Shown piece after piece: positions 8,192 to 60,588 of a stretch of 64,000 bases of DNA (the stretch's first letter is position 1; every line of letters starts with the position of its first letter). Below the pieces are notes generated by a model. That model worked only from the letters and a program-made list of their open reading frames with translations. It was not told the origin of the DNA and searched no databases. This DNA is from a bacterium (lineage in GTDB: Bacteria; Margulisbacteria; Marinamargulisbacteria; UBA817; JABISL01). The position numbers and the translations under genes are program-made. Location: the NCBI GenBank assembly GCA_018700055.1, contig JABISL010000038.1:19161-83160 (forward strand), in the 5' to 3' direction.

Positions 8192-8200
8192 TGCTATAAT
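8192..8200 (+). promoter_or_regulatory. Extended -10 promoter of parA, 6 nt before GTG (leaderless candidate)
   Basis: TGcTATAAT 8192-8200, GTG at 8207, no SD. Confidence 0.65.
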
Positions 8201-8206
8201 GGTCTT

Positions 8207-8974
8207 GTGTCTGGACAAATAATTGCTATTGTTAATCAAAAAGGTGGTGTAGGAAAAACAACCACATCCATTAATCTATCTTCTTTTCTTGGTGAAATGG
8301 GGCATAAGGTTCTTTTGGTTGACTTCGATCCTCAAGCAAATGCAACATCTGGAATAGGGCTTCGGGGAGATCAAATTAAAAAACATTCTTATCATTTATT
8401 AGATTCCAACCAGGATGTTTCGGAAGTTCTTTACCCCACCCCCTTCCAAAATCTACACATCCTTCCCGCAACCCAAGATTTGGCGGGGGCAGAAGTAGAG
8501 CTATCCAACATGGTTTCACGTGAAACAATACTTAAAGACCGTCTCCGTCCACTGCTCGACTACTATGACTATATTATTATCGACTGTGCGCCATCCCTAG
8601 GGCTATTAACCGTTAACGCTCTTTGTGCGGCCCACCAATGCCTAATCCCTGTTCAGTGTGAATACTACGCTCTCGAGGGCATTGCAGGCCTCCTTAAAAC
8701 ACTTGAGCTTGTTAAGGGTGGGCTCAACCCTATGCTTCGTATCATAGGGATCGTTCTTACAATGTATGACTCTCGCACATCATTGAATCGACAGGTCATT
8801 GATAATGCACGCGCCTATTTTAAAGGACTTGTGTTTGACAGTGTTATTCCCAGGAATATTCGCCTAGCTGAGGCGCCCAGCCATGGATTACCTATCTTAC
8901 TTTATAGCGCCTCTTCAACAGGTTCTCTAGCTTATTCAAACTTAGCTAAGGAGTTTATTCAACGTGTCCAATAA
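8207..8974 (+). CDS. parA: Chromosome partitioning ATPase ParA/Soj (start revised to GTG 8207)
   Basis: IIAIVNQKGGVGKTTT, DFDPQANAT, PVQCEYYALEG, IPRNIRLAEAPSHG. The upstream MFHVKH extension is just parS read as codons. Confidence 0.95.
   Translation: MSGQIIAIVNQKGGVGKTTTSINLSSFLGEMGHKVLLVDFDPQANATSGIGLRGDQIKKHSYHLLDSNQDVSEVLYPTPFQNLHILPATQDLAGAEVELSNMVSRETILKDRLRPLLDYYDYIIIDCAPSLGLLTVNALCAAHQCLIPVQCEYYALEGIAGLLKTLELVKGGLNPMLRIIGIVLTMYDSRTSLNRQVIDNARAYFKGLVFDSVIPRNIRLAEAPSHGLPILLYSASSTGSLAYSNLAKEFIQRVQ
8512..8527. promoter_or_regulatory. parS: parS site 3, inside parA
   Basis: GGTTTCACGTGAAACA (15/16 match), encoding VSRET. Confidence 0.8.
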
Positions 8975-9833
8975 TACAACATCTCGTTTAGGAAAAGGCC
9001 TAGAGGCCTTGATCCCCTCCATCTCTATGACAACCCAAACAAAAGACTCCACTGATGGATCTTATAAATCAATCCCCATAAAATCTATTTCACCCAATCC
9101 GTTTCAGCCACGTCTACATTTCGATCCCGAATCCATATCTCATCTGGCAGACTCCATTCGCCAGCATGGTTTAACCCAACCAATTGTTGTTCGAGTCATA
9201 AATAATGGCTATGAATTGGTCGCTGGTGAGCGTAGGTTTCGCGCTTGTGGACTAGCGGGACTAGATGAGGTTCCAGCAATAATTAAATCAATAAATGATA
9301 AGGACTCCCTACAACTCGCCCTGATTGAGAATCTTGAGAGGGAAGATTTAAATCCAATAGAAATTGCAAAAGGGTATCAGCGCTTAATTATTGAGTTTGA
9401 TGTCACACACGAAACAGTGGGCACCCTGTTCGGCAAAAGCCGCGCATCTGTTAGCAATACATTACGGCTCTTAAAGCTACCTGAAGCAATCCAAGGAAAA
9501 GTTAGTTCTGGCGCTATAAGCGAAGGTCACGCACGAACATTGTTGTCGTTGGATTCAGATACAAAAATTGACTCTGTTGTAGAGCAGGTCATTTCTCAAA
9601 AAATGAGCGTTCGCGATACAGAGACCTTGGTGACGAATACCTTGCCTAAAAAGAAAGAGTCTAAATCGAATTCTGATAAATATCAGCCAAATCGGTGGTA
9701 TGAGATACAGGCTATTTTATCTGATAAGTTAAAGTCAAAGGTGTCTGTTAAGGGCGCGCGAGGTAAGGGAAAAATTGAAATACAATTTAACTCTTCTGAT
9801 GACATTGAGCGACTATTTAATCTTCTTCAATAA
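8964..9833 (+). CDS. parB: Chromosome partitioning protein ParB/Spo0J
   Basis: RLGKGLEALI, PNPFQPR, AGERRFRA, ALIENLEREDL, HTH KSRASVSNTLRLL. Confidence 0.97.
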   Translation: MSNNTTSRLGKGLEALIPSISMTTQTKDSTDGSYKSIPIKSISPNPFQPRLHFDPESISHLADSIRQHGLTQPIVVRVINNGYELVAGERRFRACGLAGLDEVPAIIKSINDKDSLQLALIENLEREDLNPIEIAKGYQRLIIEFDVTHETVGTLFGKSRASVSNTLRLLKLPEAIQGKVSSGAISEGHARTLLSLDSDTKIDSVVEQVISQKMSVRDTETLVTNTLPKKKESKSNSDKYQPNRWYEIQAILSDKLKSKVSVKGARGKGKIEIQFNSSDDIERLFNLLQ

Positions 9834-9835
9834 CC

Positions 9836-12213: not shown

Positions 12214-12257
12214 ACTAGTCTTATCTTTCATTTTGTCGATAGGATATAATACTAGGA

Positions 12258-13016
12258 ATGGACTCGAAATCAAATGTATGTGACTACAAAGGGTACGACT
12301 ATAAGTCAGATTATTGGGGCAATGATGTCCGAAAATATGAAGATTTATGTGAGAAACGTACCTTAAGAACGTTATTAAAGCCTGTTGTCAGAAAAGATGG
12401 TCGTCTTTTGGATGCCGGGTGTGGGTTTGGACGTTTAATCCCCTCTTATCACGATTTAGTCGGATCCGTTGCATGTATGGACTACGCTACCAATATGTTA
12501 GACGGAGCAAAAAAGTCTTCCGAGCCCTATTCAAACACCATTTTTTCATTTGTTCAGGGCGATTTCTATTCTATTCCATTAAAGGACGCTTCTCAGTCTG
12601 TGGTGGTTACAGTACGCACCATTCATCATGTTGATAAGCCAGAGAAGTTTTTTAATGAAGTAAGCCGAATATTGGACAAAAATGGTCATTTTTTGATCGA
12701 AATATCTAATAAACGCCACATTCTACACATTATTCGGTGGATTTTAAGAAAAACTAGAGTTAGTCCGTTTACATATGAACGCCTAGAGCTGGGTGATCAT
12801 TTTTATAACTATCATTATAAAGACATCATTGCTCGTTTAAATGCCTGTGGATTTGATGTAAAAAGAACCAAAAATACCAGTTTTTTCCGCATTTCTATAT
12901 TAAAAAAGGTTATTCCGGCCAAAATACTTGCTTTTTTTGATCATTTATTTCAAATTTTATTTTCATGGACCAATCTAACACCTAGTATTTTTGTTCTTTG
13001 TAAAAAACGAGAATAA
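12258..13016 (+). CDS. Class I SAM-dependent methyltransferase
   Basis: [10 protein letters not shown] motif I and TIHHV..P...F.EVSRIL..NG; TATAAT 7 nt upstream. Confidence 0.85.
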
Positions 13017-13071
13017 ATTGTTTATTCTTTCTCGGCTGTGCTAATATATGCGAACCTAGTTTGGGTGAGAT

Positions 13072-13202: not shown

Positions 13203-13213
13203 CCTGTTTATAT

Positions 13214-16294: not shown

Positions 16295-16308
16295 CGTAGT
16301 ATTGAGGT

Positions 16309-17409
16309 ATGGTTCATAAGATCTGGATTAAACAACACCGTAATTTAGAAAATATTATGGTTTCGGTTAACCAGTCCCGCAATGTATATGTGTATGGATT
16401 GAATAATCAAGGAAAAACGAATTTTTTGGAGGCCGTGTATATGTGCGCATTTGGGCGGTCTCCTCAAGAATCTGAAATTAATCACTGTATTCCTTTAGAT
16501 AAACCTCATTCAGTGATGGGGGTGGCTTATGATATTGATGGGGACTCTCATCAGGCCTATGTAAAATTCTCTGAGACAGGACAGAAAGAAATTTCGTTAG
16601 ATGGACAAGTCATTACTTCTTTTCGTTCCTTACAGAAGCAAATACCAATGGATTATGTTTCTGCGGATGTGATTCGTTTATTTCAAGGGTATCCAGATAC
16701 ACGTCGACGTGATTTAGATCAGTTTGTTGGTCAGTTGGATCATGAATACACTGCTATACTTAAGCGATATTCTCAGGTATTAAAGCAAAAATCAGCGGCC
16801 TTAAAAGAGTCAATAAACCCTTCATCTGTCGATGTTTGGAATGATCAGTTAATTCCTTTGGCTGAGGTTTTAGTTAATCGTCGGTTATTAGCGCTTAAAC
16901 AATTATCAGACAAACTTCAATTGTTTATGGATGAGTTGGGTTTGGTTGAATTTTCTAAATTAGATTGTCTATATCAAGCGAAAAGTCTTGGAGACGCATT
17001 AGATCAATTTCCTAATTATCAGGAAAAACTAAAACAAAAATTAAAAGAAGGTCGCTTAAAAGAGTGGCACTCAAAACAGTGTTTATATGGTCCTCATCGT
17101 GATGATTTTTCTATTCGTTTTGATGGAAAAAGCCTCACTAATTTTTTCTCAAGAGGAATTAATAGAGCGGTGTCATTATTGGTAAAAGTGGCTCAACTTC
17201 AAATACTTTCTAATAGGGGTAAGGGGTTTCCCCTTCTTTTATTAGATGACGCTTTGGCAGAAATAGATGATACTAATCGGTCTAAGCTACTACCTTTTAT
17301 ATCAGCACATACCCAAATTTTTTATACTACAACGGATAGAAGTGATGAAAATTTTCTTCCTGAATGTATGGTTTATCAAATTAAAAAAGGCGTTTTATCA
17401 AATGGATAA
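16309..17409 (+). CDS. recF: DNA replication/repair protein RecF
   Basis: GLNNQGKTNFLEA, RRRDLD, GPHRDD, SRG, PLLLLDD; synteny. Confidence 0.9.
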   Translation: MVHKIWIKQHRNLENIMVSVNQSRNVYVYGLNNQGKTNFLEAVYMCAFGRSPQESEINHCIPLDKPHSVMGVAYDIDGDSHQAYVKFSETGQKEISLDGQVITSFRSLQKQIPMDYVSADVIRLFQGYPDTRRRDLDQFVGQLDHEYTAILKRYSQVLKQKSAALKESINPSSVDVWNDQLIPLAEVLVNRRLLALKQLSDKLQLFMDELGLVEFSKLDCLYQAKSLGDALDQFPNYQEKLKQKLKEGRLKEWHSKQCLYGPHRDDFSIRFDGKSLTNFFSRGINRAVSLLVKVAQLQILSNRGKGFPLLLLDDALAEIDDTNRSKLLPFISAHTQIFYTTTDRSDENFLPECMVYQIKKGVLSNG

Positions 17410-18442: not shown

Positions 18443-19248
18443 ATATTGGTTAAATTAAGATAATTTAATTGATAATCGGATAATTCCCACAAGTTGAAAT
18501 TATTTATAAAAGAGTGAAAGGTTTCTACATCTTTTGTGACATAGCCTTCCCATTTATTGGGTGGGCCTACTGTTGCTTTGAGTGAATGGGTTACTAATTT
18601 TTGATTTAGTGGCGATACAATACAATTTGCAGGGTTTATAAATTTAAACTTAGGGTTTTCTTTTGAAAGTAATGATTCAAAGAAGGGATAGTGTGTGCAT
18701 CCATGAATAATTGTTTGGCATCCTAGGTCTATTAACTTACTAGTGTATTGTGCGGCCACTAAACTAGCCTCTGAGGATCCTAAGCGGTTAGTTTCAATTA
18801 AAGGGACTAACTCAGGACAAGCGATCTCGTGGACCGTTGTATTTGGGCTGATTGAGTGGATTGCTTGTTGATAGGAATGTGTATTTACAGTGTTTTGTGT
18901 TGCCATAACTGCAATCGGCGCCGAAAGAGCTTGGGGAGATAAGCTTAATGCAGTAGGTAATACCAGGTCTTGGACAGGAATTTTGATTTGATTGATAACG
19001 TCTTCTAGAAAAAGAGAATTACTAGTATTGCAGGCAATAACTAGCATTTTTATATCTTTTTTTAGAAGGAATGCAATGATTTCAAAGACGATATCATGTA
19101 ACTCATCTACTGATCGAGAGCCCCAAGGCGCTCTTAATGTGTCTCCTACATAGATAAATGATTCGTTTGGAAATGCGTGAGTTAAGGTACTTAAGACACT
19201 CAAGCCACCAACACCTGAGTCGAACACTCCAATAGGCTGTTTAATCAT
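18439..19248 (-). CDS. murI: Glutamate racemase
   Basis: GVFDSGVGGLSV, IACNTS, GCTHYP. Confidence 0.95.
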   Translation of the reverse strand: MIKQPIGVFDSGVGGLSVLSTLTHAFPNESFIYVGDTLRAPWGSRSVDELHDIVFEIIAFLLKKDIKMLVIACNTSNSLFLEDVINQIKIPVQDLVLPTALSLSPQALSAPIAVMATQNTVNTHSYQQAIHSISPNTTVHEIACPELVPLIETNRLGSSEASLVAAQYTSKLIDLGCQTIIHGCTHYPFFESLLSKENPKFKFINPANCIVSPLNQKLVTHSLKATVGPPNKWEGYVTKDVETFHSFINNFNLWELSDYQLNYLNLTNI

Positions 19249-19268
19249 GGCCTTATTATAGTGTGGGT

Positions 19269-21095
19269 TTAGTGGCTTTGAAAGTAAGATACGATACCAT
19301 TAAAAATGGACAGCGCTATTTTTTGTCGGAAAGCGGCCGTTTTAATTAATTTGTATTCATTTGGATTAGTGATAAAGCAGGGTTCAACCAATGCGCCAGG
19401 CATAGTTGAATGATTCAACACATACATCATGGATCGTTTAACCCCATTATTTTTCAGGCGAAGGTTTTTAACCATTTCTTTTTGAATTGCTGTAGCGAGC
19501 GGTTTGTCTGATTTTTTATAGTAATAAGTTTCAGTGCCTCGAGCATAAGATTTTATAAATGAGTTCACATGAACGCTGATTAAAATATCTGCCTTATTTC
19601 TATTTGCAAGTTGCGTTCGGGCGGCTAGAGAGGGGTTGGAGTCATTACGACGGGCCATTAACACCTTTGCACCGTGGTTCTTAAGTAATTTTTCTAAGCG
19701 GATTGAAATATCTAATGTGTATGCCTTTTCTCTTTCCATTCTTCTGCCAAGTGCACCAGGGTCACGTCCTCCATGTCCAGGGTCTATTGCAATAACCTTG
19801 TTTTTTAGAGCTTTATTGGCTCTTTTTGATCCATTTTTGGTTATATTTGGCTCTTTTTGATCAAAAACCTTTTTAATTGAGTCTTTTTTATAAATTGGTA
19901 GACCAGGTTTATCGGAAGCAGTATATGGGATTAATAGGTTTGTATTTTGGTTGGTACTTTGTAATTTTAGAGGTTGAGCAGAGGTGATAACTAGTCGGGT
20001 ATCGGATCCTTTTTGTGCTGCTGAAATCCGGGTGATTGTCGGATGGTCTAAATGTTTTGAAAAGGGTTGGAGTTTGAGTTGGGATTGGGGGATATCCCAG
20101 AATAAACGAAATGGGTGATGAAGTGTATTGGGATTAGGGAGTCGTATCAGGGGGTTTCCTTCAATATGAATTGTATATCCTTCATTTTTTTTAGTAAGGG
20201 TAAGTCCCGTGATGTTTTTAAGAAATATAATAGATCTATCAAACTGTCTCCATTTAAGGCTAAACCCAAGATCATGAGCCATAGCGTGTAAAGGAAAAAG
20301 GAACTGGTTTTTGGAAAATTTAACACTAAAATCAAGAGATTTGGTTTTGGTTTTAGTATTTTTTTGGATATCTACCTGATTACTGTTGGCGTGAAATGTA
20401 TAATACACACCATTTTTTTCTAATGAGATAGTAGAGTCAGTTTGTTTAACCATGTATCCCAACTGTTTCAGAACAGCAGCTAACTCAACATGTAATTTAT
20501 TATCAAAATATTCAAAGCGATCTGTTATATCAAACAGTTTCCCTGAGATATCGATATATGTTTTTTTTCTTTTGTCTAAAGGCTCATATTTCCCAATGGG
20601 TGGTTTTGGGTCTATTTTTAAACTAAAAATAGCACTATTTGAATCTTTTTGGACATATTTAGCCTCTTTTGATTGTTTTAGTGTACCTTTTTCAATAATA
20701 TAGAAATGATTGGCAGTTTTTTCTTGTAGCTGAAACCCCATTGGTAACAAGACAGAAGCGAGCGGGGCGTATAACACTCGATCTTTCATGAAGGAGGGGT
20801 GGCTTAATTTTTTCGGAGTGTCGGCCTGAGTATATTGGGTGGTATTTGGAAAAAGATGGATCTGGGACTGGCCCTCTATGGTGATGATGTAGGTGTTGGT
20901 TTTACGGTCGTAATTCAACTTTCCATGCAATTCTTTTACAAGCTCACGTAGCGGGACGAATATCGCATCCTTATTCTCTAGTAAAGGGGCCTGAAAATAG
21001 ATTGGGTTTTCAGAGATATGAATTTTTGGACTCGCTATTAACAAAAGAGGCGTGCCTAAAACTAATATGAAGAACAAGACCATGCGGTTTAACAT
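19269..21095 (-). CDS. N-acetylmuramoyl-L-alanine amidase (Amidase_3) with N-terminal stalk/AMIN-like domains
   Basis: Signal peptide, FVPLREL stalk motif, IDPGHGGRDPG, ISVHVNS, LVEPCFITN. Confidence 0.9.
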   Translation of the reverse strand: MLNRMVLFFILVLGTPLLLIASPKIHISENPIYFQAPLLENKDAIFVPLRELVKELHGKLNYDRKTNTYIITIEGQSQIHLFPNTTQYTQADTPKKLSHPSFMKDRVLYAPLASVLLPMGFQLQEKTANHFYIIEKGTLKQSKEAKYVQKDSNSAIFSLKIDPKPPIGKYEPLDKRKKTYIDISGKLFDITDRFEYFDNKLHVELAAVLKQLGYMVKQTDSTISLEKNGVYYTFHANSNQVDIQKNTKTKTKSLDFSVKFSKNQFLFPLHAMAHDLGFSLKWRQFDRSIIFLKNITGLTLTKKNEGYTIHIEGNPLIRLPNPNTLHHPFRLFWDIPQSQLKLQPFSKHLDHPTITRISAAQKGSDTRLVITSAQPLKLQSTNQNTNLLIPYTASDKPGLPIYKKDSIKKVFDQKEPNITKNGSKRANKALKNKVIAIDPGHGGRDPGALGRRMEREKAYTLDISIRLEKLLKNHGAKVLMARRNDSNPSLAARTQLANRNKADILISVHVNSFIKSYARGTETYYYKKSDKPLATAIQKEMVKNLRLKNNGVKRSMMYVLNHSTMPGALVEPCFITNPNEYKLIKTAAFRQKIALSIFNGIVSYFQSH

Positions 21096-21114
21096 AGCTA
21101 TAGTTTAAATCATT

Positions 21115-42003: not shown

Positions 42004-42077
42004 GTGTTTAGTAGACCATAGTTGATTACGGATAAAAAGGCCCAAAACTAGAGGTCAGCGATGCTATAATAATCGCT

Positions 42078-45893: not shown

Positions 45894-45961
45894 GACCGCT
45901 ATTATAGGGCATTACGATTTTTATTTGGAGGTCACAGGTCTAGTGTTACAATAAAAAAAGT

Positions 45962-46570: not shown

Positions 46571-47552
46571 GGGTTTCTGAGGCGACCAAAGCCTCTTTTA
46601 CAACAGACTCTAGATTCGGATAACTGCTGGTGAGACGCAGGTCTTCAGGGCGAATACAGGTATAGCTAAAGAAGGGGTTGTTGATGCAATAGCGGTCCCA
46701 AGGTGCGAGTTGGATACGGAATATCTTTAATAGTAAGAAGATGAACCAGTGCGGGATTTTGATTTGAAACCATTGTTTTTTTCTAAGGACTTGGCAGAAT
46801 ACCTTTACGGCTTGTCGTTCGGTGATGACCGGTTGTCCAACAACAATACCTTGATGGAGGTTGGGTGTTTTGGCGAATTGTTTAAATAGAGAGGTATCAT
46901 CTGTTAGCATCGCTCCAATACAGACCTTAGAGATATCTTTGGCGTGCATTAAATGGAATGCCGCATCGAAGTAAAACCATTTCAGGACATTTACGTAGTT
47001 GAGGCCTGTTGGAATACCTTCGGATAAATGAGATTTGGGATAGTTTTTGGTAGCTCCCCAAACAGTGGTTGGGAAAATGGAGACGACTTTGTCTCTTAAT
47101 GGATGTTTGCAGATAGATTGATAGGCGCGGTATTTAGAACGTACATATGGCGTGCCTTCTGTTTCGGCGGCTTTAGTAGTAGAGGTGCTATTACCTAATA
47201 TACTGGCGGTAGAAAAGTACATAATACGCTGTATTTTTTTGGAATTGAGTGAGTTCAGCATGTCTAATGTTTTGTTTACATTGATATGAACAGTATGTTC
47301 GTAATCGCCCCATTCAGTCGCGATATGAATCAGGTGATCCATCTCTTGTAGAACAGGTTTGAGCGTTTCAATGGTTTCCATAGACCCCGCATGAAACGTT
47401 ACATTGGGATGGGTTTGAATGCCAGGTACCTTAAATCGAGCTTGGTCTCTACATAAAAGATGGAGCTCAAGTTCAGGGTTTTTTAATAGGTCTTCAACAA
47501 TGTGATGCCCAATACAGCCACTGCCACCTGTAATAAATATTTTTTGACTCAT
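46557..47552 (-). CDS. NAD(P)-dependent epimerase/dehydratase (extended SDR)
   Basis: IFITGGSGCIG, YFSTAS, YVRSK. Confidence 0.88.
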   Translation of the reverse strand: MSQKIFITGGSGCIGHHIVEDLLKNPELELHLLCRDQARFKVPGIQTHPNVTFHAGSMETIETLKPVLQEMDHLIHIATEWGDYEHTVHINVNKTLDMLNSLNSKKIQRIMYFSTASILGNSTSTTKAAETEGTPYVRSKYRAYQSICKHPLRDKVVSIFPTTVWGATKNYPKSHLSEGIPTGLNYVNVLKWFYFDAAFHLMHAKDISKVCIGAMLTDDTSLFKQFAKTPNLHQGIVVGQPVITERQAVKVFCQVLRKKQWFQIKIPHWFIFLLLKIFRIQLAPWDRYCINNPFFSYTCIRPEDLRLTSSYPNLESVVKEALVASETPTTK

Positions 47553-47578
47553 TTGAGCATTATATCAGAAGGGGCTGC

Positions 47579-49060
47579 TTAATTAAGCTCGATTCCGTAT
47601 TTGGTGGCTTTGTTATAAAAGGTTGTCCGAGAAATACCTAATGACTTAGCGGCGCGTTGGATATTGCCATTGGTGAGTCGATACGCTTTTTTTAGAGCTT
47701 CTTTTTCAAGGTCGTCTAGGGGAATGATGACGTTGTCGTCGGGAGCGGGAAGCTCTGCCAAAGATGGGTTGGCCCGCAACATCAGCGAGTCTTTCTCTCC
47801 GGGTTTTAACTGCATCAAAGCAGCGGTAATGGGCTGGCCATTTGCCATGATGATTGTGCGTTGGATGAGGTTCTCAAGTTCTCGAATATTGCCTTCCCAT
47901 AGTTGCTTTAACAGATAGGCTTGGGCATCGGATGTAAGTTGTGTTTCTGGGGTACCATATTGCTCTGTATAGACTTCCAAAAAGTGGATTGCTAAGGGAA
48001 TAATATCTTCTTTGCGATCTCGAAGAGGGGGTACATGAATGGGGAATACATTTATTCGATAGTACAAATCCAATCGGAATGTACCGTCATCCACTTCTTT
48101 TTTAAGGTCCTTGTTGGTGGCGGTCAGAATTCTGACATCTAATTTAATCTTGTCAGAACCGCCAATGCGTTCAATTTCGCGGTTTTGGAGGACGCGCAGT
48201 AGTTTAGTTTGGAGGTCTAGTGGGAGCTCTCCAATTTCATCGAGGAATAAGGTGCCGCCAGAGGCGAGTTCGAACTTCCCTAATCGTTTTTCGGTAGCGC
48301 CTGTAAAAGCACCTTTTTCGTGCCCAAATAATTCGGATTCAATGAGATCCTTAGGAATAGCGCCGCAATTGAGTGTGATAAAGGGTTTCTTTTTTCGTGA
48401 CGAGTGTTTGTGAATTTCATTGGCAATTACATCTTTTCCAGTACCACTTTCCCCTTCCAATAAGACGGTCACATCATTGTTAATAACCATTCCAATCGCC
48501 TTGTATACAGATGCCATGCTATCGCTTTGACCAATAAGATTTCCGAATCGTTCCGCACTTCGTTTTTCTTGGAGATACGATATTTGTTGGTTTTGTTGGC
48601 CAATCAACTGTTCTTTTTCAGCAGAGTAAATTTCAAAAGCAAGCAGCCCAAGGAGGTCTACAAGTGTACTGAGTCGCTGCATACTTTCCTCATCAGCCTC
48701 GTCAGTGTTGGATTCAGTGAATTTGAGTAGACTCGATTTGAGAGAAAAAATAAGCATGGCAGTATCTTTTGCAGTGAATCCGTTTTGGAAATGTGCCTCT
48801 CGAACGTTATGCCAAATTGCAAAGATAGGATCTAGCTCTTTGGGTGCTGGTGTTGGTAGATTGGGGTTGGCCACTGCCCCCATGAGTCGACTGAGAAGGT
48901 CTTTGGAGAGCGTGTTTATTTCAGCATCAGCTGTGGCAAAGTGATCCGAAAACTGAGTATTTGTTGCACGTTCATTTTCCCAAACATCCAGGAATTGATT
49001 GTTTTTAAGGTCAAGTAAGTCGGCTTTTTCTACCGAAGGCTTTTCTGGATTGTCAGGCAT
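47579..49060 (-). CDS. Sigma-54-dependent Fis-family activator with an RsbR-N-like sensor domain
   Basis: GESGTGKD, ELFGHEKGAFTGA, LFLDEIGE, WEGNIRELEN, C-terminal HTH AAKSLGISRTT. Confidence 0.92.
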   Translation of the reverse strand: MPDNPEKPSVEKADLLDLKNNQFLDVWENERATNTQFSDHFATADAEINTLSKDLLSRLMGAVANPNLPTPAPKELDPIFAIWHNVREAHFQNGFTAKDTAMLIFSLKSSLLKFTESNTDEADEESMQRLSTLVDLLGLLAFEIYSAEKEQLIGQQNQQISYLQEKRSAERFGNLIGQSDSMASVYKAIGMVINNDVTVLLEGESGTGKDVIANEIHKHSSRKKKPFITLNCGAIPKDLIESELFGHEKGAFTGATEKRLGKFELASGGTLFLDEIGELPLDLQTKLLRVLQNREIERIGGSDKIKLDVRILTATNKDLKKEVDDGTFRLDLYYRINVFPIHVPPLRDRKEDIIPLAIHFLEVYTEQYGTPETQLTSDAQAYLLKQLWEGNIRELENLIQRTIIMANGQPITAALMQLKPGEKDSLMLRANPSLAELPAPDDNVIIPLDDLEKEALKKAYRLTNGNIQRAAKSLGISRTTFYNKATKYGIELN

Positions 49061-49101
49061 ACTGTTCAGATTTTATACACTTTAGGGTGTGTTTGGCAAG
49101 A

Positions 49102-50505
49102 TTAATCCCAGGGACTTAGTTTCCAAAGCGAGCCAATGGCTTCCAAATAGCCTTTAACTGAAATACGGGTGTTTAGGTGCATATTGAGGTGAAGCGGTGG
49201 GGCCGCCTGACGCCCAATTCGCATTAAGACTCGGAGTAATGTTTGGGCCCAAGTAGGGCAATGGGGGTCGTGAATGACGTTGATATTGTGTCGAAGGCAG
49301 TACCGCATAAGCTTGTGAATGTTGCCTATAGTATAAAGGGGTATATAGTAAGGAAAAAGCGTAAGCCCTTGGCGTTTAAAGTGTTTGATAATCGGTCGGA
49401 GCTGATAGTAGTCGTTTCTGTTGCGCAGGGTAACAAGGATGCGCGTTGTGTTCTTTAGACGATCGACTACTTGAGTGGACTTGGGATGATAGGGCAGTAA
49501 TTTCATATCCTTTTCCAAGATATGAAGCCGATCTAATAGGCAATCTGAGGAAACATGCTGGAGACATTTTTCAGTGCAAGGTTTGGTTGGCGCATGATCG
49601 CATAAGTAGTCTTTTCTAATGATTTGAAAGGGATCAGACAAAGGGCCCCACTGACCAGGATGTCGGTGTTGGGATTGGGAGATAACGATCATGGGTTTTC
49701 CCATAATACTGCCGGCTTGCATGAGATCAGTGTCCGGCCCGACATAGGCGTCACAAACATTGAGTAATGACATTAACGCCATGAATGGTGGCGATGTCTG
49801 GAGGTTGAGTAATCTGGGATGGCTTATGGATTTTAGGACAACGTCATGTCCTTTTTCGTCTGGGACAAGGATGATGTTCCAGCTCCCCTTATCAAGAGTC
49901 TGTGTTACAAAGGTGGCAATGCTCTCGGGAGGGATGGTAAGACCGTTAGTAGTTTGGCCGGTATAAACCAGAAGCGTTTGTTTGCTAGCATCTTCTAAAT
50001 GGGTCTTGAGTGCATCGACCTTGATATCCATTTCAGCCAGGGTGTACTCCTTGAGAATGGGGGGAAGGTGGTCTATTTTTAGGGGGCGAAGTAGGGCTAG
50101 GTTGCGTTGGACTTGATGCTGACTTAGGTCTTGCGCATTGATTTTGGTGCCTTTATTAAAAAATAATCGATTAATGGGGTTGCTGATGTCTCCAAAACGA
50201 AACGGAATACCCACACGGCGTCCTAATTGTACCAAAGGTGAGTGGCTCCATAAGCAAATATAGATGTCATATGACTGGGATTTAATTGTTTGGCGCAGCT
50301 TTTTGCTTGAGCCAGGGGACCATGTATGGACGTTTTGGATTAAAGGGTGAAAAGTCACACAGTCTGCCGACTCAACATTGGTAATGATGTCGATGATGGG
50401 TGTATTAAAGTGCTCTGTCAGCCGTTCAATTAGAGGGAAGGCCAATATGACATCTGCTCGCGAACGGGCTTGTTGAATCAAAATACGCGGACTCGATTTT
50501 TTCAT
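49102..50505 (-). CDS. Glycosyltransferase family 9 (heptosyltransferase-like), divergent
   Basis: RADVILAFP, HQVQRNLALL, VGPDTDLMQ, QWGP. Confidence 0.75.
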   Translation of the reverse strand: MKKSSPRILIQQARSRADVILAFPLIERLTEHFNTPIIDIITNVESADCVTFHPLIQNVHTWSPGSSKKLRQTIKSQSYDIYICLWSHSPLVQLGRRVGIPFRFGDISNPINRLFFNKGTKINAQDLSQHQVQRNLALLRPLKIDHLPPILKEYTLAEMDIKVDALKTHLEDASKQTLLVYTGQTTNGLTIPPESIATFVTQTLDKGSWNIILVPDEKGHDVVLKSISHPRLLNLQTSPPFMALMSLLNVCDAYVGPDTDLMQAGSIMGKPMIVISQSQHRHPGQWGPLSDPFQIIRKDYLCDHAPTKPCTEKCLQHVSSDCLLDRLHILEKDMKLLPYHPKSTQVVDRLKNTTRILVTLRNRNDYYQLRPIIKHFKRQGLTLFPYYIPLYTIGNIHKLMRYCLRHNINVIHDPHCPTWAQTLLRVLMRIGRQAAPPLHLNMHLNTRISVKGYLEAIGSLWKLSPWD

Positions 50506-50578
50506 ATCTTCTATTATAGAGAAGCGCGGAGCCCAAAGCTACTTTCCCTGAAGTGGGGATGCCCTTATAATGATTGTC

Positions 50579-52222
50579 ATGAGTGATAAAAGACGAATTT
50601 TGGTGACGAGTGCATTGCCGTATGCGAATGGTAGTATTCATTTGGGACATTTGGTGGAGTATATTCAAACGGATGTATGGGCACGTTTTCAGAAGATGCG
50701 TGGGCACGAGTGTGTTTATATCTGTGCGGACGATACGCATGGCACACCGATTATGTTGTCTGCGCAGAAACAAGGCATTACGCCAGAAGAGCTAATCGAG
50801 AAGGTTCATGTTGAACACCAGGCTGATTTTGCGGCCTTTCATGTAGAGTTTGATACGTATCACACTACTCATTGTGACGAAAACAAAGAACTGTCTGAGC
50901 TGATTTATAATCGAGCGAAGGCCGCGGGTGCGATTTGTGAGAAGGATATTGAGCAGCTTTATGATGAAGAAGCGGGTATGTTTTTACCGGATCGATTTGT
51001 CAAAGGTGAGTGTCCCAAGTGTGAGGCAAAAGAGCAGTATGGTGATTCTTGTGAGGTTTGTTCAGCAACCTATTCACCGAAAGACTTGGTGGAACCAGTG
51101 TCAGTGGTCAGTGGTCAGAAGCCAGTATTGCGTCACTCCAATCACATCTTTTTCAAATTATCTGACTATGAAGGTTTTTTGCAAGAATGGTTTAAACAGG
51201 ATCCGGTTCATGAAGGACTTAAAAAGAAACTCAACGAATGGTTTGAATCAGGCTTAAAGGATTGGGATATTTCGAGAGATGCCCCATATTTTGGATTTAA
51301 GATACCGGGAACGGATGATAAATATTTTTATGTTTGGGTAGATGCCCCAGTGGGATATATGGCCTCTACGAAAAAATGGTGCGAGACCAATGGCGGGGAT
51401 TTTGACTCTATTTGGGTGAATGGTGATTATGAAATACATCATTTTATTGGCAAAGACATTCTCTATTTTCATACGCTTTTTTGGCCTGTGATGCTGCATG
51501 TAGCTGAGTTTCAAACCCCACATCATGTGCATGTGCATGGATTCTTAACGGTTAATGGGGAGAAGATGTCGAAAAGTCGTGGGACCTTTATTTTGGCGAG
51601 TAGTTATTTGGAACAGGGCCTAAACCCAGAGTATCTTCGCTATTATTATGCGTCTAAATTGTCCGCTTCAGTAGAAGATATTGATCTGAACTTCGATGAT
51701 TTTATTCAACGAGTGAATTCAGACGTTGTGAATAAGTTCGTGAATATTGGGAGCCGGTTGGGTGCCATTGTTCGTAAGAAATTGGATCTAAAGTTGTCGA
51801 CTCCTGACGCTGAAGGCGAGACTCTATTGGCCGAGATGAGACAGTCGATTCCAGTGGTGGCAGATTTGTATGACGCCAGAGAGACGAACAAGGCGATGCG
51901 TGAAATCATGCGGTTAGCAGATCTTGCTAATCAATATATAGACCAAAAGGCGCCGTGGACGGTTGTAAAAACAGACGAAGAGCATGCGCGTGCGATTTGT
52001 ACATCGGGGTTAAATGCCTTGGCAATCCTTTCGGGACTATTAAGTCCGGTGATGCCAGTGCTATCTAGTAAAGTGGCTTCGTTCTTGGGTATAACGGATA
52101 CAATTTGGGATGCAATTGGGACCTTGATAAGCGATCGTGAGATTGCTCCTTTTGAGCGGATGGCAGATCGAGTGGATGCCGACCAGGTTGCCTCTCTTAC
52201 CTGTACACCTAAGACTGCATAA
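50579..52222 (+). CDS. metG: Methionine--tRNA ligase (start revised to ATG 50579); lacks the C-terminal tRNA-binding domain
   Basis: TSALPYANGSIHLGH, zinc knuckle CPKC..CEVC, KMSKS. Confidence 0.97.
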   Translation: MSDKRRILVTSALPYANGSIHLGHLVEYIQTDVWARFQKMRGHECVYICADDTHGTPIMLSAQKQGITPEELIEKVHVEHQADFAAFHVEFDTYHTTHCDENKELSELIYNRAKAAGAICEKDIEQLYDEEAGMFLPDRFVKGECPKCEAKEQYGDSCEVCSATYSPKDLVEPVSVVSGQKPVLRHSNHIFFKLSDYEGFLQEWFKQDPVHEGLKKKLNEWFESGLKDWDISRDAPYFGFKIPGTDDKYFYVWVDAPVGYMASTKKWCETNGGDFDSIWVNGDYEIHHFIGKDILYFHTLFWPVMLHVAEFQTPHHVHVHGFLTVNGEKMSKSRGTFILASSYLEQGLNPEYLRYYYASKLSASVEDIDLNFDDFIQRVNSDVVNKFVNIGSRLGAIVRKKLDLKLSTPDAEGETLLAEMRQSIPVVADLYDARETNKAMREIMRLADLANQYIDQKAPWTVVKTDEEHARAICTSGLNALAILSGLLSPVMPVLSSKVASFLGITDTIWDAIGTLISDREIAPFERMADRVDADQVASLTCTPKTA

Positions 52223-52971: not shown

Positions 52972-53110
52972 ATAAGATCCACTTTGACCTTCGGCAAAGG
53001 TGGATCGCGCTCGGTCTGAATGAATCAGCCCCTCGCTTAGTCGCAGACGCACGTAGTTCGTTCGGACTAACTGGGCCAGATCTCTCCAAACGGTTGTGAG
53101 AGCCCTGAGC
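52972..53110 (+). repeat. Structured dispersed repeat, copy B, with extra stem-loops
   Basis: ATAAGATCCACTTTGACC-TTCG-GCAAAGGTGGATC; CTGA-ATGAA-TCAG; TTAGTC..GACTAA; CTCTC..GAGAG. Confidence 0.7.
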
Positions 53111-53129
53111 ACAATGTAGAATAGAGCCC

Positions 53130-53696
53130 ATGAAAACATTACTCATGGGTTTTTTAGTGTGCGTTGTAAGTGCTTCAATGGGATTTGCGCAGTCAGAGGC
53201 ATCGCCTAAAAAGGTTGCTCGAGCGAAAGCGCCGATCGAATATAACGCCTTTCGTTTTGGTCATGGATGGAGCAATGAGATTCCTTATGGTTACTTCGTA
53301 GAGATGGACCATATTATTTCGGGGACCACATCGATCGCATTTGGTGCCGGTTCATTTAATCAGCGTGTTAACAAAGATATCTTAGAAATTGTGACATACA
53401 AGGTCACTTACAGACAGTACGCCGAAGTGTTTTCCAAGGGGTATTGGGGGCTTGGTGGTTTGATTAGCGATGTTCAGGCGACAACAGATTCGACTACTGC
53501 TAGAGGGACTGTTCCGGCTGTATTTGCTGAAGCTGGATATTTGATCACCTTACGCCCTGTTATTATTGATTTGGCATTTACGGCGGGATACTCCTTTGGA
53601 GCTATGAGTGCTAGCACGGGAACCTTGGAAGGCATTGCATACAATCCAAATAAGTTGACATGGGGCTTTCGAATAGCCGCTGGATACACTTTTTAG
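53130..53696 (+). CDS. Secreted small outer-membrane beta-barrel protein
   Basis: Signal peptide, FAEAGY, C-terminal AAGYTF beta-signal. Confidence 0.7.
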   Translation: MKTLLMGFLVCVVSASMGFAQSEASPKKVARAKAPIEYNAFRFGHGWSNEIPYGYFVEMDHIISGTTSIAFGAGSFNQRVNKDILEIVTYKVTYRQYAEVFSKGYWGLGGLISDVQATTDSTTARGTVPAVFAEAGYLITLRPVIIDLAFTAGYSFGAMSASTGTLEGIAYNPNKLTWGFRIAAGYTF

Positions 53697-55010: not shown

Positions 55011-55097
55011 CATATAATAATCCGAGAAATTGTCCGCTCTATTCAAATGAATTACCTTTCAAATTGAGAGCGTATCTGCACCTGGATGAGTTGTATG
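55011..55097 (+). other. Long stem-loop in the mreB-hemW spacer
   Basis: CATATAA/TTGTATG, ATCCG/TGGAT and CGCTCT/AGAGCG arms; TATAAT at 54996-55001 just upstream. Confidence 0.45.
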
Positions 55098-55110
55098 ATA
55101 CTTTAATCCT

Positions 55111-56247
55111 ATGATTCAACATTCCGATTCGGCATTGTCAGTGTATATCCATGTGCCGTTTTGCGCCAAGTTGTGCCCGTATTGTGCATTCTATAAGCAG
55201 AAATGGGGTAAAGAACGTGAGCAGGCCTTTGTGGAGGCTACTGTGAAGGAGATTGAGTGGTATGGGGAACACTACCCTGATGAGGTGGTGCGAACAGTGT
55301 TTTGGGGTGGGGGAACTCCCAATATTCTCAAGCGAGTATCAGTAGAGCGTATTATGACTGCGCTTAGAAATGCCTATTCATTTCAAGATGAGGTTGAGAT
55401 TACTATGGAGATGAATCCAGGTATGTCATCCAAGGGAAAGCTGGCAGCGTTCAGAGAAGCTGGAATTAATCGCGTAAGTCTTGGTGTTCAATCTATGAAT
55501 GCAGATGAACTGGTGGTGTTGGGACGAAATCATACGGCGGAAAATACTCACAAGACACTGAAGCATATTCGAGAAGTTGGTTTTGATAACGTAAGTGTGG
55601 ATCTAATGTTCGGGTTGCCGAATTCCACAGTTAGGTCTCTGCAGAATAGTTTGGATGCGGTGTTGGATTATGACCCGGAGCACTTATCTACTTATGGATT
55701 AACGATAGAATCGGGCACTCCTTTTTTCAGAAACCAACAGCTGAAAGTTGGACAGGACATGGAGAGAAAACAGTTTCAAAAAATCATCACAACATTGAAA
55801 AAAAAGGACTACCTTCACTATGAAGTATCTAACTTTTCAAAAATAAATAGGGAATCAAAACATAATATGGCATACTGGGAATTAAGACCGTATATTGGGT
55901 TGGGGCCCAGTGCGCACTCTTTTTTCAAGGGAAATCGTTATTCTAATAAACGGAGCTTGGATATTTATACCCGAGCCCCCTACCCTAGTGCCTACTTGAA
56001 GTCGGGTGTTAAGCCCTATTCATCTGATAAACTTTTAAAAGAGTACATAATGACAGGCTTAAGGATGATGGATGGGTTATCATTCTCGACCGTAAATGAC
56101 CTTTTTGGGGTAGACATCAAAAGACGTTATGCGAATACGATACAGTCATTGTACGCCCTTAAGTTAATCTATAAGCCTGACCACGATTTGAGGGTAACAA
56201 CTAAGGGGGTATGGGTACTTGATGAAATTGTTCAGCAGTTTCTATAG
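55111..56247 (+). CDS. hemW: Radical SAM heme chaperone HemW (HemN-like)
   Basis: YIHVPFCAKLCPYCAF, GGGTP, RVSLGVQS, YEVSNFS, HNMAYW. Confidence 0.92.
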   Translation: MIQHSDSALSVYIHVPFCAKLCPYCAFYKQKWGKEREQAFVEATVKEIEWYGEHYPDEVVRTVFWGGGTPNILKRVSVERIMTALRNAYSFQDEVEITMEMNPGMSSKGKLAAFREAGINRVSLGVQSMNADELVVLGRNHTAENTHKTLKHIREVGFDNVSVDLMFGLPNSTVRSLQNSLDAVLDYDPEHLSTYGLTIESGTPFFRNQQLKVGQDMERKQFQKIITTLKKKDYLHYEVSNFSKINRESKHNMAYWELRPYIGLGPSAHSFFKGNRYSNKRSLDIYTRAPYPSAYLKSGVKPYSSDKLLKEYIMTGLRMMDGLSFSTVNDLFGVDIKRRYANTIQSLYALKLIYKPDHDLRVTTKGVWVLDEIVQQFL

Positions 56248-57073: not shown

Positions 57074-57116
57074 CCATTTCTTGTGTCTGAATGAGTTGAG
57101 CGAGTACACTTAGTGA

Positions 57117-58193
57117 ATGGTTGGTAAATTTGAATTATTGAAGTCATCTAAGAAACATAAGGGCCGTGCTGGCATCTTGCATACTGCTCATGGATCGATT
57201 GAGACCCCTGTTTTTATGCCTGTGGGCACTCAGGCGACGGTAAAAGGCCTTACCCCTCAGATGGTTGAGGATACGGGCGCTCAAATTGTATTGAGTAACA
57301 CCTATCATTTGGCATTGAGACCTGGGTCAGATTTAGTGGAAGAGATGGGTGGGCTGCATAAGTTTATGAACTGGTCCAAGCCGATTCTGACGGATTCAGG
57401 TGGCTATCAAGTATTTTCGCTTAGTAAAATGAGGAAAATTTCGGATGACGGCGTGGAATTTCGATCCCATATTGATGGATCCAAGCGGATGTTTACGCCA
57501 GAGTCCGTAATCGACATTCAGCGTCAATTAGGCTCAGATATTATGATGCCTTTGGATATATGTTCGCCATATCCGTGTAAGCGGAATCAATTGGAAAAAG
57601 ATTGGATTCAAACTCTCGCATGGGAAAAACGAGCGAAAGCTCATTGGGAAAAGGCCCCTGGTAAGCAGTTGCTATTCGCTATTGTTCAAGGTGGGATGGA
57701 TAATGGGCTACGTAAAGAAAGTGCCCAAGCGCTTATTGATTTGGACTTTCCTGGTTATGCCGTTGGTGGCGTGAGTGTAGGAGAGCCATTGGATGAAATG
57801 AATGAGATTACGGCTCACACTGTTCCGTTGCTTCCTGAAGACAAGCCGCGCTATTTGATGGGGGTAGGGTTACCTGAAAATATGCAGTTTTGTATTGAAC
57901 AGGGTGTTGATATGTTTGATTGTGTTGCACCTACACGCCTGGCTAGACACGGCCAAGTATTTGATCAAGAAGGTGGTCGTCTTAATATCAAGAATGCTCA
58001 ATTTCAAAGGGACCAGGCACCGATTGATCCTAGCTGTGATTGTTACGCTTGTCAGCACTTTACGCGTGCTTATATTCGTCACCTTTTTATTGCAAAAGAG
58101 GTGTTGGCGATTACACTAATGAGCTTGCATAACATCCGTCATATGGTCCGACTGGTTACCCGTATCCGCGAAGGGATATTGGCTGAAGATTAG
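57117..58193 (+). CDS. tgt: tRNA-guanine transglycosylase
   Basis: ETPVFMPVGT, LTDSGGYQV, PRYLMGVG, CDCYAC..H. Confidence 0.98.
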   Translation: MVGKFELLKSSKKHKGRAGILHTAHGSIETPVFMPVGTQATVKGLTPQMVEDTGAQIVLSNTYHLALRPGSDLVEEMGGLHKFMNWSKPILTDSGGYQVFSLSKMRKISDDGVEFRSHIDGSKRMFTPESVIDIQRQLGSDIMMPLDICSPYPCKRNQLEKDWIQTLAWEKRAKAHWEKAPGKQLLFAIVQGGMDNGLRKESAQALIDLDFPGYAVGGVSVGEPLDEMNEITAHTVPLLPEDKPRYLMGVGLPENMQFCIEQGVDMFDCVAPTRLARHGQVFDQEGGRLNIKNAQFQRDQAPIDPSCDCYACQHFTRAYIRHLFIAKEVLAITLMSLHNIRHMVRLVTRIREGILAED

Positions 58194-59152
58194 TTGGCGG
58201 CGTCTAACGCAGTGGTGTTGGCACTAGATGTGCTGTCAGTTAAATCTAAGGCAGACGTTGTTGATTCAGGTTTAACATAGGTATCGATTGCTTTGGTTAG
58301 AAGTGTTTTGGCTTGTTTGGATAAACGTGGCTTTTGAAGTGTTTGGACTACCTTTATTGCTTTTGGTTTTTGGTTTTGATGTAGCAAGTTAATGATTGAA
58401 ATGGCTTGGTTTTCAAGGGGTCTATTAATCAATAATCGGGGAGATTTAGGGTCAAATGATTTCACTAAGTTGGGGGGATAAGTATAATTTGCGATGTTGA
58501 AAAAAGATTCGGTAAACAATGATTTGAGTGATGAGATGGTGATAGTTGTTTCTAGAGAGAGATCTTGGTCATCTAAATGCTTAAGGAATAAGCTGGTTAT
58601 GAAGGTTTCGTAGGGAGATATTTTGCCATAAAAAATAACGGAATTATCGGAGGCTTTTTTTTCAGAGATTGTAGCCAGATAAAGCTTGTTTCCGTCAGTG
58701 TACCCTTCAATTAAATACATCGGATATCCATAATGAAGCTTGCTGCTTCTTCCGATCCACTCAAAGGCATCCCCTGACGTAGTTCTTAAGCTTAAATGGG
58801 ACTCATTTAGGGTTGTCTTGGCGATGTGGTTGTCCTGCCGATTACTGGCCGTTGAGGTCCATGTGGTAGTGGGGTTTCCAGATACAGTTTTGATAGTCGC
58901 TTTTGTATTGCCTTTTCCCCAGGAGAGTTGGGTAAACCCTTCTAAAGGGGTAAGGCCTTTAATTGCAACGACAATAGCTTGGTTTTCGGTAGAAATGATG
59001 TTGTTTTTGACGGGAATGGCTAGTGAATAAGTGACCGAGAATCCCCGCTTTTTGGGGGATGTATTGGGCGCTACTTCTTGCGTTACCTTGCCACAAGCTG
59101 AAAAGCTGAGAAGGGCCCCGATAGTAAGTATGAGATATACGGAGCGCTTCAT
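58190..59152 (-). CDS. Hypothetical lipoprotein
   Basis: MKR, hydrophobic stretch and FSAC lipobox. Confidence 0.75.
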   Translation of the reverse strand: MKRSVYLILTIGALLSFSACGKVTQEVAPNTSPKKRGFSVTYSLAIPVKNNIISTENQAIVVAIKGLTPLEGFTQLSWGKGNTKATIKTVSGNPTTTWTSTASNRQDNHIAKTTLNESHLSLRTTSGDAFEWIGRSSKLHYGYPMYLIEGYTDGNKLYLATISEKKASDNSVIFYGKISPYETFITSLFLKHLDDQDLSLETTITISSLKSLFTESFFNIANYTYPPNLVKSFDPKSPRLLINRPLENQAISIINLLHQNQKPKAIKVVQTLQKPRLSKQAKTLLTKAIDTYVKPESTTSALDLTDSTSSANTTALDAAN

Positions 59153-59160
59153 TGGGTTAA

Positions 59161-59883
59161 TTAGGCACCAAAAGTAGGCGGGGCTGATGAAAATGGGTTG
59201 TTAGGATTGTGGTTGGATATATTAACAGAGTCAATTCCAGCTACAGGTTGATTTGGATTGGGTTCCGTAGGAATATCCAAAAATCCTTTTTTATCCAATG
59301 TTTCGGTTAGTCGGCCCATCAAGAAGTCAGTCATATGACGCATAATAGATTCAAAAATATCTACAGCATCTTTGGCCTTTTGATCCATCTGAGTTACGTT
59401 TTTGAGAAGTTCTGCTTTGGGGATTCCTATTTTTCCTTGGGATTTGGATTGGGTAGGATTTGAAGAAATGCCACTCATTTTGGATAGTGAAGCATATGGG
59501 TCATCGCCTTCGCCGCCTTCTGCAGACAAGCTTCCGTCTATTAAATTCATTGTTAGATGAGCGCCACCCGCACCTGTTATGGTTGTAGTTTCTTCGGTAT
59601 CGCCATCGAGGAGTTTGTTAGAGAGCTCTTTGATTTTTTTAGTAATATTATTGATTGCATCTTTTAGGTCTTCGGTAACCATTTCGCCCAAAGCTTCCAT
59701 TAAGAACCCTAATCGCTCAAGTTCGTTAGGCTGAATGCCGTCATTAATCATCATTTTTATGAGATTCATGACTTGTTGAATAAGCTCAATGTCGCCTTTG
59801 CTGAGCCCCATTTTTCCAGAAGAACTGTTGATGGTTTCCAATAAACTGGAGATGTCTGTTCCTAGTGATCCGATTCCTAACAT
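59161..59883 (-). CDS. Hypothetical helical protein (start probably ATG 59883)
   Basis: GGGGG SD-like site 7 nt before ATG 59883; low-complexity G/S segments. Confidence 0.65.
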   Translation of the reverse strand: MLGIGSLGTDISSLLETINSSSGKMGLSKGDIELIQQVMNLIKMMINDGIQPNELERLGFLMEALGEMVTEDLKDAINNITKKIKELSNKLLDGDTEETTTITGAGGAHLTMNLIDGSLSAEGGEGDDPYASLSKMSGISSNPTQSKSQGKIGIPKAELLKNVTQMDQKAKDAVDIFESIMRHMTDFLMGRLTETLDKKGFLDIPTEPNPNQPVAGIDSVNISNHNPNNPFSSAPPTFGA

Positions 59884-60027
59884 GGCTTTGGCCCCCAATG
59901 AGTAGTATTTCTCTCTATCATACAATATATCGTTGGGAATCGCCTAAAACATGTATGGAATCATGGTGTTATTAGCCTCAATTTAGCCTCGGCAACATTT
60001 TTTGGTAGGGTTTGGTATACTAATGTC

Positions 60028-60588
60028 ATGAAATCCCAAATTGAAGCGCAAATTAAAGCGAGTATAGAGGCCAAGCAGGCGATTCCTGTAGAGGCGGTAG
60101 AGATAGCTGCAAAAGTAATTATTTCTGCTTATCAATCGGGCAATAAATTATTAATTGCGGGGAATGGTGGGTCTGCAGCGGATGCGCAACATATAGCGGC
60201 AGAGTTAGTGGGACGCTACCTAAAAAATCGAGATCCGTTACCTGCCATAGCCTTAACTACCGATACTTCTGGAATTACAGCGATTAGTAATGATTTTGGT
60301 TATGACCTTGTTTTTGAGCGACAGTTGCACGGGCTCGGCGTGCGAGGCGATGTATTTTTGGCGATTAGTACGTCGGGACAATCGACTAACCTGATTAATG
60401 CGATTAAAAAAGCCAAGGATATGGGGATTCATGTGGTTACTCTTACAGGAAAAGATGGTGGCGAGATGGCTAAGCTTGCGGATACCTCTATTTGTGTTGC
60501 CGTTCCAGACACACCAAGGATCCAAGAAGCTCATATTGTGATCTATCATATTTGGTGTGACATGATCGAACAGCAGCTGTTTCCTTAA
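60028..60588 (+). CDS. gmhA: Phosphoheptose isomerase
   Basis: GNGGSAADAQH, NDFGY..VF.RQ, ISTSG, RIQEAH. Confidence 0.96.
   Translation: MKSQIEAQIKASIEAKQAIPVEAVEIAAKVIISAYQSGNKLLIAGNGGSAADAQHIAAELVGRYLKNRDPLPAIALTTDTSGITAISNDFGYDLVFERQLHGLGVRGDVFLAISTSGQSTNLINAIKKAKDMGIHVVTLTGKDGGEMAKLADTSICVAVPDTPRIQEAHIVIYHIWCDMIEQQLFP

Follow-up and report, generated by a model that had tools for sequence, protein, structure and literature searches.

The window examined here (G000:C5:19161-83160) is a 64-kb stretch of an assembly, G000, of 1.85 Mb in 58 contigs, with a guanine-plus-cytosine (GC) content of 42.8% and a completeness of 95.9%. Fourteen of its genes had been singled out because a hexamer of the form TAnnnT, resembling a promoter -10 element, stands immediately ahead of the start codon; in twelve of them the spacer between hexamer and codon is just 6 or 7 nucleotides (nt), a distance at which transcription would begin on or beside the start codon and give a messenger RNA (mRNA) without a leader. 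The organism probably belongs to the marine class of Margulisbacteria and has no family mate among the genomes compared. NCBIfam names in the window include parA/parB, rsmG, mnmG, dnaA, dnaN, recF, murI, an amidase, queA, ahcY, thrC, TamB-like and BamA-like genes, holA, an SDR gene, a sigma-54 activator, a GT9 heptosyltransferase-like gene, metG, mreB, hemW, tgt (57117-58193), gmhA and gmhB.

On the forward strand, parA (8192..8209) has the extended box TGcTATAAT, with the hexamer at 8195-8200, a spacer of 6 nt and a GTG start at 8207. The same extended box precedes a sulfatase/LtaS-like gene (42062..42080; hexamer 42065-42070, spacer 7, ATG 42078), and gmhA (60013..60030) carries TGgTATACT (hexamer 60016-60021, spacer 6, ATG 60028). 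TATAAT lies 7 nt before the ATG of a methyltransferase gene (12245..12260, ATG 12258) and, at 50566-50571, 7 nt before that of metG (50566..50581, ATG 50579). The hypothetical gene 53130 (53094..53132) has TTGTGA, 17 bp, TAGAAT (53117-53122) and a spacer of 7 nt to its ATG, and tgt (57105..57119) has TACACT at 57105-57110, 6 nt from ATG 57117. On the reverse strand are murI (19246..19260; TATAAT 19255-19260, spacer 6, ATG 19248), the amidase gene (21093..21107; TAAACT 21102-21107, spacer 6, ATG 21095), holA (45891..45906; TATAAT 45901-45906, spacer 7, ATG 45893), the SDR gene (47550..47567; TGaTATAAT, hexamer 47559-47564, spacer 6, ATG 47552) and the GT9 heptosyltransferase-like gene (50503..50518; TATAAT 50513-50518, spacer 7, ATG 50505). 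Two genes have spacers of 9 nt: the forward-strand hypothetical gene 45962 (45944..45964; TGtTACAAT), which is divergent from holA and whose leader would be 2-3 nt long, and the reverse-strand sigma-54 activator gene (49058..49099; TTGCCA, 18 bp, TAAAAT at 49070-49075, ATG 49060). All 14 boxes were listed in a first-pass annotation of the window and were recovered on re-reading the sequence, as were the short gaps between co-directional genes in which some of them sit: 20 bp between the amidase gene and murI, 19 bp between a gene of 1610 amino acids (aa) and the amidase gene, and 26 bp ahead of the SDR gene.

The GT9 gene (reverse strand) and metG (forward strand) stand back to back, with 73 bp between their ATGs and a perfect TATAAT 7 nt from each. 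As each has its own box within so short a distance, the -35 zones of the two predicted promoters overlap. Two further candidates, both on the forward strand, can be added to the list: hemW (55096..55113; TGaTACTTT, spacer 6, ATG 55111) and, more weakly, recF (16297..16311; TAGTAT, spacer 6, ATG 16309), which starts only 14 bp past dnaN. The recF box may be a chance match, the background being about 5% per pair of spacings.

Seven other genes had been contrasted with these as bearing clear Shine-Dalgarno (SD) sites. The contrast stands for trxA (GGAGG at a spacing of 7), dnaN (AGGAG, 7), ahcY (GGAGG, 11), thrC (AGGAG, 6) and mreB (AGGAG, 7), and for rpsB (AGGAGG, 8) once its start is shifted to the ATG at 3408; clpC has merely a weak AAAGGGG. 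No small-subunit (16S) ribosomal RNA was found in the 95.9% complete assembly, so that the anti-SD tail could not be read and SD usage was taken from the AGGAGG peak instead.

To place the boxes of the window in a genomic context we used 1468 non-overlapping open reading frames (ORFs) of at least 120 aa, which cover 89% of the genome, with the first ATG taken as start. Among 1412 such ORFs, TAnnnT occurs 145, 77, 52 and 55 times at spacers of 6, 7, 8 and 9 nt, against a background of about 35 per offset; for TATAAT the corresponding counts are 39, 20, 10 and 6 against about 1. The intermediate form TAnAnT (1404 genes) gives 110, 58, 32 and 28 against 10-11 per offset, the excess at 8-9 nt being modest. 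As controls, the 50 nt upstream of each of 1411 genes were either shuffled by mononucleotide or rotated, 300 times each. At spacers of 6-7 nt, TAnnnT was found in 221 of these genes compared to 75 or 68 in the controls (z = 18-20), TAnAnT in 167 compared to 23-24 (z = 30-31) and TATAAT in 59 compared to 2-3 (z = 35-38). The histogram thus has a sharp peak with its onset at 6 nt, and the positional enrichment over an AT-rich background on which the first-pass annotation had staked its proposal is present genome-wide. A count that dispenses with gene calls, taking TATAAT-N(k)-ATG on both strands, yields 67 and 44 occurrences for k of 6 and 7, where other values of k yield about 19; three permuted hexamers have no N6/N7 peak before ATG in the same count. 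The 8687 internal in-frame ATGs show a flat TAnnnT profile apart from a codon-phase ripple. The peak belongs to ATG: candidate ATG starts with a box at spacers 6 and 7 number 159 and 131 against 55-65, while GTG (13, 27) and TTG (24, 40) candidates show no genome-wide peak at these spacers.

The shape of the peak bears on where transcription would begin. Boxes acting as promoters might set the start of transcription 1-3 nt ahead of the ATG, particularly at spacers of 7-9 nt; the mRNAs would then have very short leaders and would be translated without an SD. The tail of the TAnAnT peak is in keeping with this, as are the two window genes with 9-nt spacers and the nearly flat counts over spacers 6-9 in another of the genomes profiled (G122). 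In E. coli sigma-70 promoters, however, +1 canonically lies 6 nt from the -10 hexamer, and 6 nt is also the mode of the distribution. Moreover, position -1 is rich in pyrimidines (75% of box genes compared to 55% of SD genes) and the A of ATG is a purine well suited to initiation. Short leaders as the general explanation appear improbable.

If the boxes are -10 elements, other promoter features might be expected at fixed distances from them. A logo of 141 + 76 sites shows TAtAaT, preceded by T-x-T-G-x (G in 48% and 37%) and by TTG 23-21 nt before the hexamer, which corresponds to a 17-bp spacer. TGn precedes the box in 63 of 217 genes (29%) but in only 123 of 1617 control TAnnnT hexamers at spacers 11-59 (7.6%; odds ratio 5.0, p = 2e-17). 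TTG is found 16-18 bp upstream in 45 of 217 (21%) compared to 119 of 1617 (7.4%; odds ratio 3.3, p = 7e-9).

Gene context is equally informative. Boxes occur at 100 of 357 divergent genes (28%, compared to 6% at a control spacing, or about 22% net). Among co-directional genes they occur at 30 of 191 with gaps above 100 bp, 28 of 150 with gaps of 41-100 bp and 35 of 105 with gaps of 16-40 bp (33%). The frequency falls to 12 of 204 (6%) in gaps of 0-15 bp and to 7 of 308 (2%) at overlapping genes, with control spacings at 3-7% across all gene-context classes. SD 4-mers are present in 29-40% of genes in every class, overlapping genes included. Because the box vanishes at operon-internal genes, where the SD persists, it behaves as a promoter and not as a ribosome site. 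Together these data support the view that the boxes are sigma-70-type -10 elements, seated at operon heads and in gaps of 16-40 bp. Terminator-like hairpins in 41000-60500 are not enriched (17 compared to 18 +/- 3 in shuffles); the short transcription units here have no simple intrinsic terminators marking their ends.

The same observations count against a quite different explanation, in which the hexamer is an A/U-rich, S1-binding, non-SD ribosome site within a longer leader, as proposed for Bacteroidetes-type genomes, and is not a promoter at all. DNA upstream of genes is AT-rich, some non-SD initiation must exist given that about half of the genes have neither SD nor box, and a two-hexamer promoter scan, described below, found no enrichment. 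Yet a ribosome site would not account for TGn and a -35 TTG at RNA-polymerase spacings, nor for the absence of the box from overlapping genes and those with 0-15-bp gaps where the SD is still there. In addition, the consensus is TAtAaT and no generic A/U run, and de novo k-mer enrichment revealed no other upstream word. We regard this explanation as very unlikely.

How many genes are involved can be estimated in two ways. A box at spacers 6-7 is found at 217 of 1346 first ATGs compared to 60-67 at control spacings, a net of about 150 (11%); TAnAnT at spacers 6-9 precedes 228 of 1404, which leaves about 185 (13%) once a background of about 11 per offset is subtracted. From these counts we infer that a leaderless mode would serve some 150-190 of about 1400 genes (11-13%), or roughly one transcription-unit head in four. 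Alongside the boxes there is a canonical SD class: GGAG at spacers of 6, 7 and 8 nt occurs at 56, 71 and 61 of 1346 first ATGs against about 2, and an SD 4-mer is present at 480 of 1346 (36%). Only 9 of the 217 box genes have both signals. About half of the 1346 genes have neither, part of them being wrong starts from crude ORF calls; de novo k-mer enrichment in the 719 neither-signal genes, aimed at a third upstream signal, returned none, only SD-type and -10-type words. The two-tier scheme of the first-pass annotation is accordingly right in that box and SD classes coexist, but it leaves out this remaining half, and a division into SD, leaderless and unclassified genes is the better description.

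The boxes also bear on two start codons that the first-pass annotation had revised. For metG, the alignment to orthologues from 20 relatives begins within residues 1-7 of the protein starting at 50579, and the upstream ATG at 50570 lies inside the TATAAT box. For parA, similarity to orthologues sets in only at residue ~25-46 of the longer ORF beginning at 8093, with alignments from ~38-42, and the Walker-A region begins 3 residues past the GTG at 8207. In three relatives an in-frame stop lies two codons ahead of the aligned ATG, and in 12 of 13 the candidate start nearest the aligned position is an ATG. Both revised starts are upheld. Tools that take the longest ORF or expect an SD may easily mis-call such starts here and in relatives; in this genome metG comes out 3 codons and parA 38 codons too long.

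The parA gene lies in what is a classical replication-origin neighbourhood (window 8000-17500): mnmG and rsmG on the reverse strand, then parA-parB, dnaA (13214), dnaN and recF, with the GC skew passing from negative to positive near 12 kb of the window. The dnaN ORF (14825-16294, forward strand) encodes 489 aa, of which residues 1-370 match the full NCBIfam DnaN profile; the C-terminal tail of ~119 aa has no family match in NCBIfam.

Comparison with relatives shows that the boxes are conserved at orthologous starts, although not uniformly. At metG, TAnnnT stands 5-6 nt before the aligned ATG in all six same-order loci that have that ATG; other class members are mixed, with an SD in place of the box in some (L012, L015, L018, L019). 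At parA, 9 of the 13 relatives examined have a -10-like box whose distance to the aligned ATG is 6-9 nt. The closest titled MetG relatives are 'bacterium UBP8_UBA817' (61%) and 'uncultured Candidatus Marinamargulisbacteria bacterium' (57%). MetG identity is 53-62% to Omnitrophota and Gammaproteobacteria and 50-63% to the window's own class, a cross-phylum similarity that could reflect strong conservation or old horizontal transfer.

To follow the signal beyond single loci, TATAATN{6,7}ATG was counted in the whole genomes of relatives and compared with the reversed pattern by a binomial test; these counts supersede totals for TATAATN{0,20}ATG, which hold no spacing information. The ratio of the pattern to its reverse is lowered in AT-rich and raised in GC-rich genomes. 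G000 has 111 occurrences compared to 48 reversed. Of the 8 genomes from the same order, 4 have a ratio of at least 2 and 4 reach p < 0.001; the corresponding numbers are 5 and 4 for the 46 from the same class and 76 and 85 for the 91 from other classes. Four proteobacterial outgroups have ratios of at most 1 (1/1, 92/158, 59/61, 50/74). Per-gene profiles of nine further genomes all show the onset at 6 nt together with an SD peak, making 10 of 10 with G000. The net TAnAnT excess at spacers 6-9 is ~10% of 205 ORFs in G005, ~7% of 293 in G013, 4% of 151 in G030, 11% of 146 in G026, 12% of 106 in G058, 13% of 114 in G075, ~10% of 162 in G099, ~12% of 425 in G122 and 10% of 83 in G139. These profiles suggest that the signal is phylum-wide, the phylum being probably Margulisbacteria. 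The trait had at first seemed to be lost in the class to which the window belongs, many of its genomes having a perfect-TATAAT ratio of about 1, but this explanation was dropped, given the 6-nt onset in G013, in G026 and, weakly, in G030; the signal in G030 is weaker.

A weaker excess was seen in a sample of 61 Omnitrophota genomes (from G149-G210), with a median ratio of 1.7 and a median of 14 extra sites; the ratio is at least 2 in 23 of the 61 and p < 0.001 in 9. Leaderless-type promoters may be common in part of the Omnitrophota too.

The pattern might be put down to random matches in AT-rich intergenic DNA, or to an artefact of taking as start the first ATG that follows a stop codon, on the grounds that the TAnnnT background is ~2.5% per offset and that the TAA within TATAAT could bias which ATG counts as first, but this is refuted by z values of 18-38 against shuffles and rotations, by an annotation-free count that peaks alike, by the flat profile of internal ATGs, by the conservation of boxes at orthologous starts and by the fact that an in-frame TAA in TATAAT would favour spacers of 5, 8 and 11 nt, not 6-7.

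We consider it likely that the boxes are -10 elements placed 6-7 nt before ATG and that they give leaderless mRNAs. The observed motif, its spacing, the promoter co-features, the gene context and the conservation among orthologues and across the phylum are what allow us to infer the position of the transcription start and the mechanism of translation. The housekeeping sigma-70-type promoter would have its -10 element, TAtAaT and often with TGn, 6-7 nt upstream of ATG, and RNA polymerase would start on the A of the ATG or one base earlier. The resulting mRNA would have neither a 5' leader nor an SD site, and the ribosome would, by analogy with Actinobacteria and Deinococcus, initiate on the 5'-terminal AUG. 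Where co-directional genes are only 16-40 bp apart, many such promoters would be fitted into the gap, and their -35 zone would then fall within the coding sequence of the gene upstream. An AGGAGG-type SD would serve a third of genes or more, among them genes inside operons. The first-pass annotation had read the spacing in just this way, as of the Actinobacteria and Deinococcus type; spacing and promoter co-features lend that reading support in silico.

Several observations weigh against leaderless initiation from these boxes or narrow its reach. The gene calls are a crude ORF set (at least 120 aa, first ATG), made without a trained gene finder. Some 60-70 of the 217 box genes are expected from background, and single weak boxes such as TAAACT, TACACT and that of recF may therefore be chance. 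SDs are nearly excluded at box genes in part for want of room: both motifs would need the same nucleotides. parA itself starts with GTG, a class in which there is no genome-wide box peak, and is an exception to the ATG rule. A two-hexamer sigma-70 scan of 41000-60500 found 25 sites compared to 39 +/- 7 in shuffles, and hence no enrichment, so that it adds no independent confirmation; among the boxes it catches only those of genes 49060 and 53130. Most box promoters have no recognisable -35 element, TTG being present in only 21%; the predicted promoters are dominated by -10 and extended -10 elements, with weak -35 elements. Finally, a search for RNA sequencing runs listed none that contains the stretch, and three metatranscriptomes from the same study have next to none of its words.

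Arrangements of this kind have been described elsewhere. TA-led genes, with TANNNT ~10-12 bp from the start when counted from its first T, were read as leaderless and called 'widespread, although not dominant' in bacteria, exceeding 20% in Actinobacteria and Deinococcus-Thermus; the TAtaaT form was assigned to medium-GC groups and the TG extension to Firmicutes (Zheng et al. 2011, PMC3160421). GeneMarkS-2 assigns 1028 of 4769 bacterial genomes to group C, with 25-50% of operons leaderless, and gives a distance of 6-8 nt from Pribnow box to start in M. tuberculosis (bioRxiv 10.1101/193490). Work on Deinococcus from 2025 showed experimentally that an ORF-adjacent -10 element acts as a promoter and needs a defined distance to the ATG (PMC12340547).

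As in the TA-led and group C genomes (Mycobacterium tuberculosis, Deinococcus-Thermus), TANNNT stands 6-8 nt before operon-first genes with SDs elsewhere, and orthologues switch between box and SD modes (PMC3160421, bioRxiv 10.1101/193490). The share is smaller: ~11-13% of genes here compared to the >20-30% of genes or 25-50% of operons that those papers report; divergent genes (28% with a box, ~22% net) lie about at the lower edge of the operon range. The lineage also differs from those examples and is uncultured. In form, the box corresponds to the TAtAaT of medium-GC groups, with TGn added, and differs from the bare TAnnnT of high-GC phyla. The boxes here are also confined to ATG apart from parA, while Deinococcus deserti is reported to have leaderless mRNAs that begin with GUG (PMC4007540). 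In D. radiodurans and Thermus, too, the -10 promoter element abuts the ORF at a defined proximity to the start codon, and a -35 element at 17 +/- 1 bp boosts expression but is not required; there, however, the case is made with reporters and RNA and the share is ~30% of ORFs (PMC12340547), compared to sequence statistics only and about a third of that share here. The extended -10 of Firmicutes (Lactococcus), where TG one base before the hexamer offsets a weak or missing -35 (PMC3160421), has a parallel in the 29% of boxes with TGn; here most sites lack TGn, and there is enrichment for a weak TTG -35 as well.

The first-pass annotation knew of no description of the scheme for this lineage. Our literature search agrees: in the library searched, no publication was found that joins leaderless initiation with Margulisbacteria, with Melainabacteria, or with SD sites, metagenome-assembled genomes and candidate phyla together, although survey supplements (the GeneMarkS-2 tables and Fig. 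S7 of PMC12340547) could list the phylum. The mechanism is already known from TA-led and group C genomes, and it is apparently the lineage that is new for it; no new mechanism is revealed. What is gained is another phylum on the Terrabacteria side with substantial leaderless usage, a point relevant to the question of an ancestral origin of leaderless initiation. Around one transcription-unit head in four would be locatable from sequence alone, an aid to operon and regulon prediction in a phylum that has no cultured, genetically tractable member.

A broader proposal can be put forward only tentatively. Leaderless initiation may be an ancestral, phylum-wide trait of Margulisbacteria, the uncultured sister of the mostly leadered Cyanobacteria, kept at parA and metG over class-level distances, with -10-only promoters in the ~20-bp gaps of these compact genomes giving many genes of apparent operons a promoter of their own. 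If this is true, then the ancestor shared with Cyanobacteria may have made wide use of leaderless mRNAs, a mode that Cyanobacteria would since have lost.

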